A stretch of 13,120 bases of DNA from the NCBI GenBank assembly GCA_964373425.1, contig CAYJUQ010000019.1, positions 1 through 13,120 on the forward strand, in the 5' to 3' direction. This DNA is from an uncultured Candidatus Saccharibacteria bacterium (GTDB taxonomy: Bacteria > Patescibacteriota > Minisyncoccia > JAHCSD01 > CAYJUQ01). The notes below the pieces were generated by a model. The model made no database searches. It saw nothing but the letters and a program-made list of their open reading frames with translations, and had not been told where the DNA came from. A program made the translations under genes and the position numbers. Below, one piece after another: positions 2,310 to 11,766 of the stretch; position 1 is the first letter of the stretch; each line of letters opens with the position of its first letter.

Positions 2310-2340
2310 GGCGAAGTGCATAACTTCGCCTTTTCTTTTA
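2310..2340 (+). terminator. Second intrinsic terminator-like hairpin with a T-run
   Basis: GGCGAAGT-GCATA-ACTTCGCC followed by TTTTCTTTTATT. It is about 70 nt downstream of the first terminator. Confidence 0.55.
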
Positions 2341-2475: not shown

Positions 2476-5165
2476 ACAGACTACTTCATTCTATGGATTT
2501 AAGTAAATTTACCGTAAAAGCACAAGAGGCGTTACGGAACGCCCAAGGGGTTGCGGGCGAGCGAGGTCATCAGCAAATTGATGCACTCCATCTTCTTGCG
2601 GCGCTCGTTCGCGAAGAGGATGGGATTGTTGCTTCAATCCTCGATCACCTCGGCCTCGATAAAATGGCGCTCATTGAGCGAACCTCCATTGCCATAAATC
2701 GTCTCCCGCGAATCGTGGGAGATTTACCGTTTGGGCAGGTGTATATCACTCAAGATCTCGGGCGCGTTCTTGATACGGCCGCAAAAGAAGCAAAAAACAT
2801 GACCGACGAGTTTATCAGCACCGAACATTTACTTCTTTCTCTTACCGACGTTCCCACGCGCGCGAAAGAGGTGATTGATGAGTTTAATGTCTCGGGGCCG
2901 CAACTCGTTGGGGTTGGCGGCAAAAAGGGACGTGAGAAATTAAATCGGGATATTATCCTCAAGGTGCTTGCAGAGCTTCGCGGCGGTACGCGCGTCTCCG
3001 ATGAGAACCCGGAATCGAAGTATCAGGTGCTTGAGAAGTATGCGCGAAACATCACAAAAATGGCACGGGGGCAGAAGCTTGATCCCGTGATCGGCCGCGA
3101 GAATGAAATTCGTAGAGTCATGCAAGTTTTGTCGCGCCGCACGAAGAATAACCCCGTACTTATTGGAGAGGCAGGCGTGGGGAAGACGGCCATTGTCGAG
3201 GGGCTTGCCCAGCGCATCGCATCGGGCGATGTCCCGGAAAGCCTCAAGGGGAAGGAGGTGATCGCCATGGACCTTGGGGCAATGGTTGCAGGTACCAAGT
3301 ATCGGGGTGAATTTGAAGATCGTCTCAAGGCGTTTGTCCGCGAGATTGAGAGAGCCGCAGGGAAAATCATACTTTTTATTGACGAGCTTCATATGCTTGT
3401 GGGGGCGGGCGCTGCTGAAGGCGCAATTGACGCATCAAATCTTTTAAAACCGGCACTTGCTCGCGGGGAGCTCCACGCCATTGGCGCAACTACGTTCAAA
3501 GAGTACCAGAAATATGTGGAACGGGATCCGGCGCTTGAACGCCGCTTCCAACCGGTCTATGTGAAAGAGCCGAGTATCGACGATACGATCGCGATCCTCC
3601 GCGGTATTAAGGAAAAATATGAAGTCTTCCATGGTGTTCGCATTACCGATCCTGCCATTCTTGGCGCGGTGAACCTCTCGGCGCGGTATATCTCCGACAG
3701 GTTCCTACCCGATAAAGCCGTAGACCTTATTGATGAAGCATGCTCTGCCCTTCGTATGGATATTGAAAGTCAACCGCAGGAGCTCGACGCGTTGAGTCGC
3801 GAAATCACGCGTCTTGAGGTTGAAAAACAGGCACTCAAAAAAGAAAGCGACAAGAAGAGTAAAGAGCGGCTGAGGCTTACCACAAAGATTCTCGAGGAGG
3901 AGAAAGAGAAGGCGAAAAGTTTGGAGCTTCGTTGGAAGAGTGAGCGGGATGTGATCAGCGCGATCAACAATACGAAAAAAGAATTGGACACTCTGCGAGA
4001 ACAGGCGGATATCTTTGAACGAAAGGGAGACCTTGAAAAGGTGGCAGAAGTTCGCTACGCGAAAGTCCCCGAGCTTGAAAAAGAGCTCCGTAGAAAACAG
4101 CGCGAACTTGCCAAACTCCAAAAAACAAAGGCGATCGTCAAAGAAGAGGTCACGGAAGAGGATATCGCCAAAGTGGTTTCCCGCTGGACGGGTATTCCTG
4201 TTGCAAAAATGCTTCAGGAAGAAGTGGTAAAACTTGCTTCAATGGAGGTGGAACTTCACAAACGCGTTATCGGGCAGGATGAAGCGATCGAGGCCGTTTC
4301 GAACGCGGTACGAAGATCACGCGCAGGGATCGGCGAGGAGCGAAAACCCATCGGTACCTTTATCTTTCTTGGCCCCACGGGTGTCGGGAAAACCGAGCTT
4401 GCAAAGGCCCTTGCCGAGTTTATGTTCAACGATGAAAATGCGCTCGTCCGTGTTGATATGTCGGAGTACATGGAATCGCACACCGTATCAAAGTTCATTG
4501 GCTCACCCCCAGGATACATTGGCTATGAGGAAGGAGGACAGCTTACCGAGATGGTGCGACGTCGCCCCTATAGCGTTGTCCTTTTCGATGAGATCGAAAA
4601 AGCGCATGCCGAAGTTTTCAATATTCTCCTTCAGATACTTGACGAGGGAAGGCTTACCGATGCGAAAGGGCGGGCAGTGAACTTTAAAAATACCATCGTT
4701 ATCATGACCTCAAACATCGGCACCGAACTTACCCGACGTCTTGCGCATCTCGGCTTTTCTGCGAAAGACGAGGATCATGAAAAGGAAGAAGATATTAAAC
4801 AAAAAATTCGCGATGCCCTGCACCACCACTTCAAACCGGAATTTTTGAACCGGCTTGATGAGATCATCGTCTTCGACAGCCTAAAAGAGAAAGATATTCG
4901 CGCGATAGTTGATCTCCAGCTTGCCCAGGTTTCAAAACGGCTCCAGGCAAAAGGCATTCGGATCGAGTTTAAGGAACAAGTGAAAAAGGTGCTTGCCCAA
5001 AAGGGGTTCGATCCTGATTTTGGCGCACGACCCTTGAAACGCGTCATCCAACAGTTGGTACTCGATGCCGCCGCAAAACTCATCATTGCCGGGAAGATCA
5101 AAGAAGGAGGAGGCGTGGTTGTTGATGTGAAAGGCGATGAAGTCATCATAAGGGCCGCGCCGTAA
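2460..5165 (+). CDS. clpB: ClpB disaggregase chaperone (class I AAA+, two NBDs plus a coiled-coil M-domain). The true start is probably the in-frame ATG at 2493 ([14 protein letters not shown]...).
   Basis: Walker A of NBD1 is [18 protein letters not shown] and Walker A of NBD2 is [18 protein letters not shown] long coiled-coil middle domain and a C-terminal GARPLKR motif are present. The length (about 890-901 aa) fits ClpB and not ClpA or ClpC. The canonical ClpB N-terminus MDL.KFT begins at codon 12. Confidence 0.95.
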
Positions 5166-8721: not shown

Positions 8722-9069
8722 TCACTTTCTTTTTAGTATCTCGAATGATTCCACCTCGCCCGTACTCAATGTTGCACTACCACCCTCAAGACCGAATTCG
8801 AGTCGCAGCCCCCTGATAATCCATCCGGCCTTGAGCACGTTGTCGGTTCCTTTCGATCCGCGGAACCAGACCTCCTCCCCATTTTTGGTAAAGTGTTTTC
8901 CTCCATTGAGGAATACCCTTCTCTTTTTAGGGTCAAGGACGATGAGCTCATACGAGGTCGGTGTCGAGGGGTTTCTTGTGATAACACGGATTACGGTCCT
9001 TCGAGAGAGCCTTTCAATACAGAGTCGGTTATCTGACTCGTCTTTAAGTGATTCAGTTCTTCGCTTCAA
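8722..9069 (-). CDS. Hypothetical small protein (115 aa) with a TTG start
   Basis: Strong SD GGGAGGT 5 nt upstream of the TTG at 9067-9069 (minus strand). It has its own promoter and is convergent with galU. The basic N-terminus and the core SYELIVLDPKKRRVFLNGGKHFTKNGEEVWFRGSKGTDNVLKAGWIIRGL show no motif I can assign. Confidence 0.6.
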   Translation of the reverse strand: MKRRTESLKDESDNRLCIERLSRRTVIRVITRNPSTPTSYELIVLDPKKRRVFLNGGKHFTKNGEEVWFRGSKGTDNVLKAGWIIRGLRLEFGLEGGSATLSTGEVESFEILKRK

Positions 9070-9260: not shown

Positions 9261-9506
9261 TTACCGATCGCCAAGAGAGGCGATGGCAAGACCCCAGAAG
9301 ACGCCGATAAGGGCAAGGGCACCCCCTGCCATTTCTGCGAAGAGGATTTTCACAATATTCCAGCCGACGTCGCTTCCATCAATCGGAGTGCTTGTGAGGG
9401 CTTCTGCAAGCCCCACAATCCCGGTGATGAACATGAAGGACCATACCGCGATACCGCCAAGAATTGCCGCAATGCAGATGAGAACTCCGATAACTTTGGA
9501 GAACAC
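9261..9506 (-). CDS. Small two-TM membrane protein (81 aa) with a GTG start
   Basis: SD AGGGGGT 6 nt upstream of the GTG at 9504-9506 (minus strand). Two hydrophobic helices are present (VIGVLICIAAILGGIAVWSFMFITGIVGL and GGALALIGVFWGLAIASL). A terminator follows downstream. Confidence 0.55.
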   Translation of the reverse strand: MFSKVIGVLICIAAILGGIAVWSFMFITGIVGLAEALTSTPIDGSDVGWNIVKILFAEMAGGALALIGVFWGLAIASLGDR

Positions 9507-9583: not shown

Positions 9584-9604
9584 CATTCTGGGTAGTTTAA
9601 TAAT

Positions 9605-9636
9605 AAAAGCCCACGGCAAGATGCCATAGGCTTTTT
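9605..9636 (-). terminator. Terminator-like hairpin downstream of the NDT-Nudix gene (minus strand), with T-runs on both sides
   Basis: AAAAGCC-CAC-GGCA-AGA-TGCC-ATA-GGCTTTT followed by TGATGG. On the minus strand a TTATTATT run follows the stem. Confidence 0.5.
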
Positions 9637-9651
9637 GATGGTTTTGAATGT

Positions 9652-10821
9652 TCATACATCAGGTTTCATAATAACCGAGAGAATCATACCAACCGTACTC
9701 CAGTCAGCAAGATTTTCGAGGAGCAATTCTTTAAGAGATCGGATTTCAACATAGGTTCTCTCGCCCGTGGGATTATCCTTGCTTAGCCCATGGACAATCC
9801 CTTCTTGTTGATGCAGCCACTCAAGTTCTTTCTGCGTAAGCTTCACAGAAAATACATGGGCCGTGTGGGTCGAAAAAGTTCCAACAAGCTGCCGCCTGCC
9901 GTGTGACTTAAGGCGTTCTTTCTCTACCGAGAATCCGGTTTCTTCGTTTACTTCTTCGGAAGCGACTTCGAGAGGATCAGTATTTGGTGTAAACGATGAA
10001 CCTCCGGGAAGTTCCCAGATGAATCCATCGGGAGTTCGGGCAGGACTCCGAAATTCACGGACAAGCACAACTTTTGATTCCAGAATCTTGCTCTCGGGGT
10101 AGTACATGACCACCGTAGAGATGTCGGGCCGAGAGAGGATAACCTCGTTTGTTTTGTTTCGGTTTTCTTTGGCCACATGGACGTTTACATGCAGGGCCCA
10201 ACAGTAAACATTATTGCGTTTCGGGCCAACGCGGAATACCCATTTTACTGCGGCGCCATCAAGACGATTTCCTGCTCCTTGCTGGGTTTGATACCACGAC
10301 TGGAATTGAGATGTATTCCAGATCATGAGAGGAACATACCGTTCGCCTTCCGCGCGAAGAGCTCCATTGCCAACCATTTGAAGCGCATACGCAATGGTTT
10401 CCCGTAACGTATGGGCTTCTGGGATACCTGTTTTTTCAGCTACAACGCGTAGGTAGTTAGTCTTCGGTGCCTTTTGGGGAGCACCAAAGACAACCTTTGC
10501 CGATTCGGCCCAAAGACCAAACTCGACATTTGTGGTAAAGGCGGGCATCGTCTTCAGATTCCTTGGTACCCAGAATACGATGCAATCTGCGATTCCGAGC
10601 ATTCGATGTTCCCAATCGATTTGTGAGCGGTATGACCAGGTCATTTTTCCATCTCTGCTTTCGGGGACAAATACTACCCCGTCGTAGCCACACTTCGTAA
10701 GAATGCGCAGGGCTCGAGGCCGCCACGATGCAACCGTTGCTGATCGAGGAGTTGGTCCGGCAAGAAAAAGAGATTTGGTAAATGAACTCGGGGGTTCTTC
10801 CATCGAATACACCACGTGCAT
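9652..10821 (-). CDS. Two-domain fusion protein: an N-terminal DNPH1/Rcl- or nucleoside 2-deoxyribosyltransferase-like domain and a C-terminal Nudix hydrolase domain
   Basis: SD GGAGGG 5 nt upstream of the ATG. The N-terminal region (FLAGPTPRS...GVVFVPE...IDWEHRMLGIADCIVFWVP...TNVEFGLWAES) follows the DNPH1/NDT fold pattern (FCGSIRGG...LTEHV...DLEWLQQADVVVAEV...GVGYELGRA), including the catalytic Glu. The C-terminal region carries a degenerate Nudix box (GGSSFTPNTDPLEVASEEVNEETGF) flanked by beta-rich segments. Confidence 0.75.
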   Translation of the reverse strand: MHVVYSMEEPPSSFTKSLFLAGPTPRSATVASWRPRALRILTKCGYDGVVFVPESRDGKMTWSYRSQIDWEHRMLGIADCIVFWVPRNLKTMPAFTTNVEFGLWAESAKVVFGAPQKAPKTNYLRVVAEKTGIPEAHTLRETIAYALQMVGNGALRAEGERYVPLMIWNTSQFQSWYQTQQGAGNRLDGAAVKWVFRVGPKRNNVYCWALHVNVHVAKENRNKTNEVILSRPDISTVVMYYPESKILESKVVLVREFRSPARTPDGFIWELPGGSSFTPNTDPLEVASEEVNEETGFSVEKERLKSHGRRQLVGTFSTHTAHVFSVKLTQKELEWLHQQEGIVHGLSKDNPTGERTYVEIRSLKELLLENLADWSTVGMILSVIMKPDV

Positions 10822-10860
10822 GGTATCCCTCCAGTAATTATCAATGTACTATGACCTAGG

Positions 10861-10889
10861 ATTATAGCTTATGATGGAGACTATGTCCA
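10861..10889 (-). promoter_or_regulatory. Sigma-70 promoter TGGACA-17-TATAAT (minus strand) for the NDT-Nudix gene
   Basis: Minus-strand TATAAT corresponds to plus 10861-10866. There is a 17-nt spacer, then TGGACA at plus 10884-10889. Confidence 0.5.
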
Positions 10890-10908
10890 CCCCTTGAACA
10901 CATATTTT

Positions 10909-10940
10909 AAAAAGCCGTTTTAGCGACGGCTTTTAAAAAC
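10909..10940 (-). terminator. Terminator hairpin downstream of the M50 protease gene (minus strand)
   Basis: AAAAAGCCGT-TTTAGCG-ACGGCTTTT, with A/T runs on both flanks. Confidence 0.5.
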
Positions 10941-10944
10941 TAAT

Positions 10945-11766
10945 CTACAAAAATCGATTAATGTCTCCTGCGAAGATAAGGAAGATAAGCGTTACAATTG
11001 CAACTATCGAGACGAGTCCAAAGAGCGGCAGCGCTTGTTTTCCGAGCACCCGTTCGATAATCATCCCGAAAATCCTGCCACCATCAAGCGGCAGAAGCGG
11101 CAGCATGTTGAAAATGCCGATTCCGAAGGAGATAGCCACCGCAAGGCGGAACACCTCGATCGCCGTCTTCAACGTCGTTGCTTCATGCGTGATGCCGATG
11201 GGGCCGATCAGTATCGGATCTTTGTCTGCCGGAGCACCGCCGTGGAGCGCTGATTCCTGAAAGTTTTCTATAAGTCCTGGAATCAGGGTGTAGAGGAGGA
11301 GGCCCACAAACGCAAGGCCGAGTATCGGAATACCGATGCTGCAGAATAGTTTCGAAAATCGCACGATGACAAGGGCAATCGCAGTCATGGCGATAAGACG
11401 AATGTAGACCGCCGGTTCACCAAGATCTTTGAAAATAAAGAGCGCGATGATCGTAAGGAGACTCCCCACAAGGACGTTTCCGAGCACTCCCGCGCCGAAA
11501 ATCAAAGCGCGCTCGCGGTAGGGGAGGGCATTTGTTTGTTGATTGCCTCGCGGTGTTGGCTCAACATAAGCACCGAGGAAGATGGGGGAGAGGGTTAAGG
11601 GGAACGAGAGCCATGGTACTCGAAACCGAAATATAAATCCCGGAATCGGGATGCCGAGCCCCGCTTCTTTAATCTCTACACCATACCTTCGCATCGCAAT
11701 CGCATGCGCAGCTTCATGAATTACAAGGTTCAAAATCAAAAACACAAAGATGAACGCGATATTCAT
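10945..11766 (-). CDS. M50 family site-2 protease (zinc metalloprotease), minimal type without a PDZ domain
   Basis: HExxH motif within a TM helix (VIHEAAHAIAMRRYGV). A second conserved motif is NMLPLLPLDGGRIFGMI (the LDG motif). About 6 TM segments are predicted. Length is 273 aa. Confidence 0.85.
   Translation of the reverse strand: MNIAFIFVFLILNLVIHEAAHAIAMRRYGVEIKEAGLGIPIPGFIFRFRVPWLSFPLTLSPIFLGAYVEPTPRGNQQTNALPYRERALIFGAGVLGNVLVGSLLTIIALFIFKDLGEPAVYIRLIAMTAIALVIVRFSKLFCSIGIPILGLAFVGLLLYTLIPGLIENFQESALHGGAPADKDPILIGPIGITHEATTLKTAIEVFRLAVAISFGIGIFNMLPLLPLDGGRIFGMIIERVLGKQALPLFGLVSIVAIVTLIFLIFAGDINRFL

Follow-up and report, generated by a model that had tools for sequence, protein, structure and literature searches.

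A fused N-glycosidase-like and Nudix protein family as a candidate NAD-turnover enzyme in Patescibacteria-type bacteria

Why would a bacterium join a domain that resembles nucleotide N-glycosidases to a Nudix hydrolase? The question arises from a 13,120-nucleotide stretch of DNA (here called the window) from an uncultured Candidatus Saccharibacteria bacterium, in which a complete fusion gene occupies positions 9652..10821 of the minus strand. The gene is a 389-aa open reading frame (ORF) with an ATG start and a stop codon at 9652-9654. A sequence-only reading of the window had recognised the fusion and had suggested a two-step activity on an unusual nucleotide, with sanitation of modified deoxynucleotides, an ADP-ribose-like substrate and phage defence among the options. 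Our analysis retains the idea of two activities and the ADP-ribose-like option, but not the sanitation of deoxynucleoside monophosphates (dNMPs). We think it fairly likely that the protein is a bifunctional nicotinamide adenine dinucleotide (NAD) turnover enzyme and a member of the NrtR (ADP-ribose-responsive) NAD regulon of Patescibacteria-type bacteria.

Domain architecture and catalytic residues

The ORF and Pfam searches agree on a two-domain fusion. The N-terminal half matches Nuc_deoxyri_tr2 (Pfam accession PF15891) over residues 16-117 (E=7.9e-14, 52.3 bits against a cutoff of 30, profile positions 2-104 of 105), and the C-terminal half matches NUDIX (Pfam accession PF00293) over residues 249-327 (E=2e-4, 21.8 bits against a cutoff of 21.1). 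The domain order is the one first proposed, while the extents differ: the N-domain reaches residue ~150 rather than 110, and the Nudix-type module is larger, spanning residues ~185-389.

We divide the protein into four parts, all encoded on the minus strand. Residues 1-150 (10372..10821) form a Rossmann-like domain of the 'DrHyd' superfamily that resembles nucleoside deoxyribosyltransferases (NDTs) and DNPH1, as indicated by Pfam (PF15891), the structure model and Foldseek. Residues 151-184 (10270..10371) form a conserved helical linker that lies outside both Pfam models and is defined by the secondary structure of the model and by conservation. Residues 185-245 (10087..10269) form a beta-sheet subdomain, delimited by Foldseek alignments, a partial TIGR00052 match and conservation. 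Residues 246-389 (9655..10086) form the Nudix fold, which is indicated by Pfam, fold matches, conservation and weak matches to ADP-ribose pyrophosphatases in a sequence search of the Protein Data Bank (PDB).

Structure comparisons relate the C-terminal module to two-domain Nudix enzymes. In the full-length model (predicted local distance difference test score, pLDDT, 90.5; predicted template modelling score, pTM, 0.83), residues ~185-389 match the solved structures of E. coli NudF, Klebsiella ADP-ribose pyrophosphatase, the GDP-mannose hydrolase NudK/YffH, NUDT5 and NUDT14 with E~1e-10. The alignments span 200-210 columns and cover whole target chains, with target-normalised template modelling (TM) scores of 0.63-0.74. 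Because ~200-210 C-terminal residues superpose on complete chains, we assign residues 185-245 to the beta-sheet subdomain typical of the two-domain Nudix group. As modelled, the C-terminal module is thus ADP-ribose/NDP-sugar pyrophosphatase-like by fold and not a sequence-level member of that group. It shares with NudF/NUDT5 and NudK/NUDT14 the beta-sheet plus Nudix architecture over ~200 residues, an EFRxP-type motif before the Nudix box and three box glutamates. It differs from them in its low identity (12-17%), in a box Arg that is not conserved and in the catalytic-base loop, where the alignment places an invariant-like His319 in the position of the usual acidic residue of NudF-type enzymes.

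We counted residue conservation over 142 diverse family representatives. The Nudix box (residues 274-297, 9931-10002, minus strand) retains its glutamates at E290 (141/142), E294 (141/142) and E293 (130/142), together with G274 and G296, and the spacing from the first Gly to the glutamates is 1-2 residues longer than in the canonical GX5EX7REUXEEXGU. The RE of the box reads EE (E289-E290) in the window protein, as the sequence-only reading had noticed. Representatives of the family differ at the Arg position (E in 45, D in 23, H in 16, K in 13 and S in 10). Alignment of the family thus presents EE in place of RE as a family-wide trait with no sign of lost metal binding. A non-enzymatic domain, in which these substitutions had abolished metal binding, had been considered; the metal-ligand glutamates stay conserved, and so we have no pointer to a dead Nudix domain.

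The N-terminal catalytic centre is likewise near-invariant, with D79 present in all 142 representatives, E71 in 138 and E100 in 137. R26, W33, R34, R87 and T96-T97-N98 are invariant residues specific to the family, and the conserved R26, R34 and R87 suggest that an anionic group is bound. Conservation spans the full length of the protein, including residues 118-245, for which there is no Pfam model. In the linker R156 is invariant and P164, F173 and W176 are near-invariant, and the beta-sheet subdomain carries a conserved E219-x-R221-x-K223-x-N225-E226 motif plus R231.

The isolated N-domain model (pLDDT 93.4) matches PDB 4MCJ (TM 0.77), MilB (0.62), CtNDT (0.59) and DNPH1 (0.55); YtoQ and TIR domains (~0.46-0.49) are also among the matches. 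The closest solved relative, 4MCJ, is BDI_0649 of Parabacteroides distasonis, a putative nucleoside deoxyribosyltransferase and the sole significant match in a profile search with the N-domain (E=5.7e-6). It has the FLAG, WE, AD and ExG motifs in common with the fusion protein, but is a stand-alone protein of 154 aa with neither a Nudix module nor the Arg, Thr and Asn residues specific to the fusion family. The N-domain does not belong to the LOG/SLOG group, an assignment with a housekeeping role that the sequence-only reading had allowed for; the other part of that expectation, a common fusion linked to a housekeeping pathway, agrees with the genomic evidence described below.

DNPH1 has a Y24/D80/E104 catalytic triad in which E104 is the nucleophile and D80 the general acid (PMC10603095). 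Using a DNPH1 query sequence validated against PDB entries, we obtained a weak hhalign alignment (E=0.03) that pairs D79 with D80 and E100 with E104. Conservation and this weak register point to D79/E100 as the predicted catalytic pair (E100 codon at 10522-10524, minus strand). DNPH1 (Rcl), MilB/BlsM and the NDTs share the Rossmann-like fold of the N-domain and have their Asp acid and Glu nucleophile in register with D79 and E100. MilB is a CMP/hydroxymethyl-CMP N-glycosidase, so the fold can take a ribonucleoside 5'-monophosphate. DNPH1 proper is specific for 2'-deoxy substrates and holds the phosphate through S98/S128'. Sequence similarity to all of these enzymes is marginal; unlike the fusion family, they lack R26, W33, R34, R87 and T96-T97-N98, and their context is dNMP sanitation or antibiotic synthesis rather than NAD.

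At the position of the triad Tyr, three residues before a conserved Gly, the family has an invariant Phe (F19), with the register set by motif and strand position. We therefore do not file the protein as DNPH1. This replacement served solely to exclude DNPH1 membership; as a marker of ribose acceptance we rejected it, as published data on that point are contradictory. In its fold, and probably also in its chemistry, the N-domain resembles NDTs and DNPH1.

NAD gene clusters and a predicted NrtR operator

The family is large. A public protein search returned 2913 homologues, the best 120 of which are all full-length and 52-63% identical, with source names that point to Patescibacteria or the Candidate Phyla Radiation (CPR). 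Among 50%-identity representatives we identified 512 clusters at E<=1e-30; of the 150 listed, almost every one is ~380-400 aa long with one end-to-end match. A scan of one genome per species placed relatives in at least 589 GTDB species. The family is found mainly in Patescibacteria/CPR, with a patchy presence in Actinomycetota, Myxococcota, Planctomycetota, Streptomyces plasmids and jumbo phages. Cultured Glycomyces, Spirillospora, Actinomadura, Shimazuella and Enhygromyxa carry copies of ~50% identity, as do metagenome-assembled genomes of Planctomycetota and Myxococcota. The sole database label for the family is 'NUDIX hydrolase'. Our literature search found no paper that mentions PF15891/Nuc_deoxyri_tr2 and no account of a published function, or of the fusion in NAD metabolism or in CPR. 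Nor could we link the family to nrtX/nrtY of Rodionov et al., an undefined two-gene operon.

We called and clustered genes in 80 related loci (L001-L080), ~48 of which are low-GC and CPR-type, identified recurrent neighbours with curated models, and took a census of NAD genes by tblastn that is independent of gene calling. Core NAD genes lie within 8 kb of the fusion gene in 27 loci, all of them low-GC and CPR-type. The census counts nicotinate phosphoribosyltransferase (PncB) in 19 loci, nicotinamidase (PncA) in 17, NAD kinase (NadK) in 16, a NadD-like adenylyltransferase in 16, an NrtR-like Nudix regulator in 14, NAD synthase (NadE) in 12, an ADP-ribosylglycohydrolase-family protein (ARH) in 8, quinolinate synthase (NadA) in 8 and phosphoribosyl pyrophosphate (PRPP) synthase (Prs) in 7. 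PncB and NadE score above the cutoffs of their curated models and PncA just below. In a ~1-Mb genome, we estimate that a given single-copy gene would be expected to fall in a 16-kb interval ~1.6% of the time; PncB is seen in 19 loci.

PncA and PncB are the commonest immediate neighbours of the fusion gene, in six loci each. Gene order differs by locus, while the fusion gene keeps adjoining NAD genes in the same direction, often with overlaps. Locus L023, for example, has the order NrtR, ARH, fusion (overlapping ARH by 4 bp), PncA (overlapping the fusion gene by 11 bp) and PncB, and L008 has PncB, fusion, NadA and NadD, with gaps of 18 and 20 bp on either side of the fusion gene. A rough neighbour-joining tree places the window protein and L001, its closest relative, inside a clade in which essentially every other member is embedded in an NAD cluster. 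Together with the 2913 homologues, this distribution does not bear out the idea of a stand-alone accessory or orphan gene. The proposed look at homologous neighbourhoods finds the fusion conserved and present in jumbo phages, and shows no recurrent defence neighbours.

An unbiased palindrome search of NAD-gene promoter regions yielded the motif TAGTGTA-N5-TACACTA. We found its half-sites, as the pair AGTGT-N7-ACACT, in 16 of the 27 loci, against 4 in a larger control set, and 33 seed sites form a clean 21-bp palindrome. Published NrtR operators are 21-bp palindromes with a GT-N7-AC core, and the NrtR effector is ADP-ribose (PMC2330246). The CPR palindrome shares the core and the symmetry of these operators. 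Our literature search did not find the Patescibacteria operator TAGTGTA-N5-TACACTA described.

Across 1.16 Mb, a weight matrix built on this motif identifies 43 sites, almost all of them in intergenic DNA 5' of the NadK/NadE divergon, PncA, NadA, NrtR, PncB or the fusion gene (for example in L002, L008, L011, L013, L028, L034 and L040), and they are commonest in the short region between divergent NadK and NadE. The predicted operator can also be written with the half-site TAGTGTATA, as TAGTGTATA-N3-TACACTA. Four loci have it directly 5' of the fusion gene (L002, L055, L074 and, with two sites, L019), and six others, among them L013 and L036 with their ARH-fusion operons, carry it at the head of the operon that includes the fusion gene, which makes 10 loci altogether. 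Since operators lie upstream of the fusion gene or its operon head, the family is a predicted member of the NrtR regulon.

Other genes recur in the CPR NAD clusters. These include a radical SAM protein of ~295 aa in 8 loci, a protein of the histidine phosphatase family in 5 loci, whose gene often adjoins the fusion gene, an HD-domain protein and one of ~330 aa that contains a domain of the ATP-dependent DNA ligase type. Examples of cluster genes without an assigned NAD role lie at L008 3856-4749, L034 5137-6009, L005 9320-10138, L013 5820-6806 and L014 3694-5211, and some such genes sit downstream of predicted NrtR operators. A second, divergent type-II phosphoribosyltransferase replaces or joins canonical PncB in some CPR clusters (L009 1939-3171, L030; L026 10206-11657, L036, L010); these are a QRPTase_N-like protein of 410 aa and a NAPRTase_N/C protein of 483 aa. 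NadA is present in CPR clusters in which we did not notice NadB or NadC.

Family members outside CPR occur in several further settings. Plasmid 2 of Variovorax sp. SRS16, a betaproteobacterial megaplasmid (L087, 2261-7395), encodes a stand-alone homologue of the PF15891 N-domain with 44% identity, directly 5' of NAD kinase. Its operon (two hypothetical proteins, the PF15891 protein and NAD kinase) is divergent from an NrtR-family gene (NrtR_WHD, E=3.6e-19), and Nudix, RecX and Macro genes lie upstream. The annotation 'cysteine hydrolase' at this locus was not confirmed by Pfam or NCBIfam. The intergenic region contains two GTTAGT-N11-ACTAAC palindromes (3444-3466 and 3555-3577) that occur nowhere else in the DNA examined, with outer half-sites and spacing as in the CPR motif. 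The CPR operator matrix itself gave no strong sites in the phage, plasmid or Variovorax loci.

Full-length fusions also occur in jumbo phages and on plasmids. Bacillus phage G encodes one as gp334 (L082, 8974-10164, 46.5% identity), and an uncultured 485-kb phage encodes another (L084, 14989-16206, 50% identity) with a second Nudix gene and a Macro-domain gene nearby. In the rough tree the jumbo-phage copies fall among CPR sequences, a placement that suggests transfer of the fusion between phages and bacteria. Three Streptomyces plasmids carry full-length copies. Streptomyces linear plasmids also carry stand-alone N-domains in HIT/NDT-like/Nudix arrays (Streptomyces virginiae, L086 3706-7892; L089 5621-6492), in which a HIT-domain gene overlaps the stand-alone NDT-like gene by 4 bp and Nudix genes flank the pair. 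One Nudix gene of such an array is 44% identical to the Nudix part of a CPR NrtR, and an annotated Pycsar effector gene lies ~5 kb from an array. Most of the non-CPR contexts concern NAD or ADP-ribose, and none points to deoxynucleotide sanitation.

A viral fold library gave mostly Nudix-only matches to the fusion model. One entry, BFVD A0A1V0SJZ7 from Klosneuvirus KNV1 (412 aa, 'Nudix hydrolase'), aligned with the full-length model over 442 columns (E=2.4e-15) with a root-mean-square deviation of 12, a poor superposition. This protein may share the two-domain architecture, with the domains oriented differently.

Candidate substrates and rival explanations

In the reading that we favour, the two domains would act on two by-products of NAD consumption. 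The C-terminal Nudix module would split free ADP-ribose, released by NAD-consuming enzymes and the neighbouring ADP-ribosylglycohydrolase, into AMP and ribose 5-phosphate. Such hydrolysis would remove the effector of NrtR and so close a feedback loop, and the ribose 5-phosphate could feed PRPP synthesis by the neighbouring Prs. The N-domain would cleave the N-glycosidic bond of a ribonucleoside 5'-phosphate, with E100 as the nucleophile that forms a covalent intermediate and D79 as the acid. Its likeliest substrate would be nicotinamide mononucleotide (NMN), a by-product of NAD-dependent DNA ligase, which would yield nicotinamide and ribose 5-phosphate. Nicotinamide would then return to NAD through the adjacent PncA and through PncB, NadD and NadE. 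That the 'DrHyd' superfamily has NAD N-glycosidases among its members (PMC9503650) is consistent with this reading.

Several considerations favour NMN. Fusions of ADP-ribose pyrophosphatases with enzymes that recycle NMN are a recurrent finding, and NAD-dependent ligase is inhibited by NMN (PMC3680494). We favour NMN because both known fusions of this kind have an NMN-processing partner (NadM or PncC), because a ligase inhibitor needs removal and because the nicotinamide released is the substrate of the adjacent PncA. The 2005 scheme of the E. coli pyridine nucleotide cycle drew an NMN glycohydrolase step with the gene 'not yet identified' (PMC1249556).

The fusion family would be the third case of this documented pattern. 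NadM-Nudix, known from cyanobacteria, Francisella and phages, likewise fuses a Nudix ADP-ribose pyrophosphatase to an enzyme that handles the pyridine by-product of NAD consumption. It is also linked to NrtR-controlled NAD salvage, and its ribose 5-phosphate has been proposed to feed PRPP synthesis (PMC3680494; PMC2330246). Its partner is a HIGH-motif adenylyltransferase that converts NMN directly to NAD, whereas the partner in our family has an NDT/DNPH1-like fold and a predicted route through nicotinamide, PncA and PncB. COG1058-PncC combines an ADP-ribose pyrophosphatase with an NMN scavenger that steers NMN into the deamidated (nicotinate mononucleotide, NaMN) route (PMC3680494). Both of its folds are unrelated to those of the fusion protein, COG1058 is not a Nudix protein, and NMN is deamidated rather than deglycosylated.

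We tentatively extend this proposal one step further. It is possible, at less than even chances, that the N-domain is the missing bacterial NMN N-glycohydrolase, which we take to be EC 3.2.2.14, or else an enzyme of nicotinamide/nicotinate base exchange that, working with PncA, takes the place of NMN deamidase. Fused to an ADP-ribose pyrophosphatase and under NrtR control, either would constitute a third and hitherto unrecognised route for recycling NAD by-products.

A number of observations weigh against an NAD-turnover enzyme. Substrates throughout the family are inferred, and genomic context gives no means of choosing between NMN, AMP, NAD+ and nicotinamide riboside as the substrate of the N-domain; an enzyme that also cleaved NAD+ would be wasteful in a biosynthetic operon. 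The Pfam score of the Nudix domain barely clears its cutoff, and the match to TIGR00052 (YffH/AdpP) is partial (residues 214-301) and far under its cutoff (17.2 bits against 79.55). ADP-ribose pyrophosphatases usually carry a Pro 16 residues past the Nudix box, and this Pro is missing in the fusion protein. The 27 NAD-linked loci come from related CPR lineages that share ancestry and are not fully independent. In high-GC phyla, gene calling aware of third-codon-position GC content and clustering revealed no conserved neighbours, only singletons outside close relatives. The phage G copy lies among replication and nucleotide-metabolism genes, including those for DNA polymerase and ribonucleotide reductase (RNR). 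The window itself contains no NAD gene. The best score for the CPR NrtR matrix in the whole window falls on a weak, degenerate operator-like palindrome, TATAGCTTATGATGGAGACTATG (10863..10885), between the -35 and -10 boxes of the fusion promoter, and it amounts to 5.1 bits against 12-28 for confident sites. Shuffles lead us to expect ~0.0014 sites of this score in the 123-bp upstream region, and we regard the site as suggestive only.

Sequential dismantling of ADP-ribose is the first of four other explanations and an improbable one. The Nudix domain would release AMP and ribose 5-phosphate, and the N-domain, as an AMP (purine nucleoside monophosphate, NMP) nucleosidase, would convert AMP to adenine and a second ribose 5-phosphate, giving maximal PRPP for PncB. 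A fusion suits a pathway in which the product of one domain feeds the other, and Prs is among the cluster genes. DNPH1 and MilB are N-glycosidases of NMPs or dNMPs, and the Streptomyces stand-alone N-domain gene overlaps a HIT gene with Nudix nearby, both families of enzymes that release nucleoside monophosphates. Yet destruction of AMP would be counter-productive, since NadD, NadE, PncB and Prs all spend ATP. PncA and PncB are the commonest immediate neighbours, so the link to nicotinamide and nicotinate at least equals the link to Prs, and purine-salvage genes do not recur in the clusters.

A two-step breakdown of scavenged or surplus NAD+ is less probable still. Here the N-domain would be an NAD+ glycohydrolase of the CD38/TIR kind that releases nicotinamide and ADP-ribose. 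The first reaction would thus hand its ADP-ribose to the Nudix domain for splitting, and PncA, PncB and Prs could use what the pair yields. True NADases occur in the DrHyd/TIR class (PMC9503650). CD38/ADP-ribosyl cyclases and TIR NADases belong to the same higher-order Rossmann-like class as the N-domain and cut the nicotinamide-ribose bond with a catalytic Glu (PMC9503650). TIR domains are among the distant fold matches of the N-domain, which comes closest in fold to N-glycosidases that act on NMPs or nucleosides rather than to cyclases or TIR domains. These NADases are also signalling or immune effectors rather than operon partners of NAD synthesis, and co-expression with NAD synthesis under a repressor lifted by rising ADP-ribose would create a futile, self-amplifying cycle. 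Neither a transporter nor a toxin-immunity partner recurs nearby.

Base exchange, taken as a reading of its own, is doubtful. A ribosyl-enzyme intermediate would convert NMN and nicotinate to NaMN and nicotinamide and, with PncA, replace the NMN deamidase PncC at no cost in PRPP or ATP. The NDT mechanism runs through a covalent Glu intermediate, PncA directly follows the fusion gene in L009, L014, L023, L028 and L036, and CD38 catalyses the same NMN exchange (PMC11903787). E54, conserved in 123 of the 142 representatives, falls at the place of the water-activating E55 of DNPH1, by motif register only, and favours a hydrolase.

Least likely of the four is an enzyme that sanitises modified deoxynucleotides in the manner of DNPH1 or degrades nucleotide signals in phage defence or anti-defence: its N-domain belongs to the NDT/DNPH1 superfamily, jumbo phages carry full-length copies (in phage G among DNA polymerase and RNR genes, in the 485-kb phage near Macro and Nudix genes), stand-alone N-domains lie near a Pycsar effector gene on Streptomyces plasmids and the gene varies in location in large-genome phyla, but no dNMP context was found, the triad Tyr is an invariant Phe by motif register, PADLOC gave no match for the fusion protein or its window neighbours (PHROG matches were weak and generic), and the conserved neighbours are not defence genes but NAD biosynthesis and salvage genes with NrtR operators. 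Identity of 50-60% across hundreds of species argues for a conserved metabolic role of the family rather than arms-race turnover.

The window locus and implications for NAD recycling

The fusion gene of the window has its own expression signals, and the promoter, ribosome-binding site and terminator that the sequence-only reading had described are borne out by a consensus scan, a direct sequence read and RNA folds. All lie on the minus strand. A promoter-like site (TGGACA-17-TATAAT, 10861..10889) matches the consensus at 11 of 12 positions, and a ribosome-binding site, GGAGGG (10827..10832), lies 5 nt 5' of the ATG. An intrinsic-terminator-like hairpin (9597..9635) with a 14-bp stem, a 3-nt loop and a T-rich tract follows the stop codon; its folding energy is -20.8 kcal/mol (z=-6.1), and none of 200 shuffles is as stable. 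A second hairpin with a T-tract (10904..10940, -13.2 kcal/mol, z=-3.3) at the end of the upstream M50 gene splits the M50 transcript from the fusion gene, and the fusion gene is monocistronic in the window. The gene itself is secure. An identical protein is already in public records, an independent assembly contig has the same gene call and the same flanking genes, and homologue alignments begin at M1.

The neighbours in the window do not recur with the family. The upstream gene (10945..11766, minus strand) encodes an M50-family membrane metalloprotease of 273 aa. Tblastn of every window neighbour against the 80 related loci found none that recurs, and with M50 adjacency in 0 of 80 loci we consider the association between the protease and the fusion, raised in the sequence-only reading, to be incidental. 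The M50 protein has no PDZ domain, and its N-terminal HExxH region shows weak matches, far under cutoff, to intramembrane proteases of ribosomally synthesized and post-translationally modified peptide (RiPP) maturation (daptide, YydH/LiaK). Downstream of the fusion gene lie ORFs for a hydrophobic protein of 81 aa (9261-9506, minus strand) and a protein of 115 aa (8722-9069, minus strand); neither has a match in Pfam, NCBIfam, PHROG or PADLOC or a counterpart near the fusion gene in related loci. Elsewhere in the window, a near-perfect inverted repeat, GGCGAAGT-GCATA-ACTTCGCC (2310-2330, plus strand), lies between an SPFH-domain gene (end 2193) and ClpB (start 2460) and could be a terminator or a heat-shock operator.

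If the favoured reading is true, the family would provide a new bacterial enzyme for NAD recycling, and its gene would be a candidate for an N-glycohydrolase activity that biochemists have known for decades but that has had no gene assigned to it. The NrtR regulon and its operator would also extend to Patescibacteria. Should the N-domain act as in the extended proposal, the third recycling route would serve hundreds of Patescibacteria species, and jumbo phages would have borrowed it. Given the jumbo-phage copies near Macro and Nudix genes, the family may also bear on how phages handle depletion of host NAD. For the ultra-small, host-dependent CPR bacteria, such an enzyme would help to explain how the NAD pool is maintained, which would be relevant to metabolic reconstruction and cultivation.

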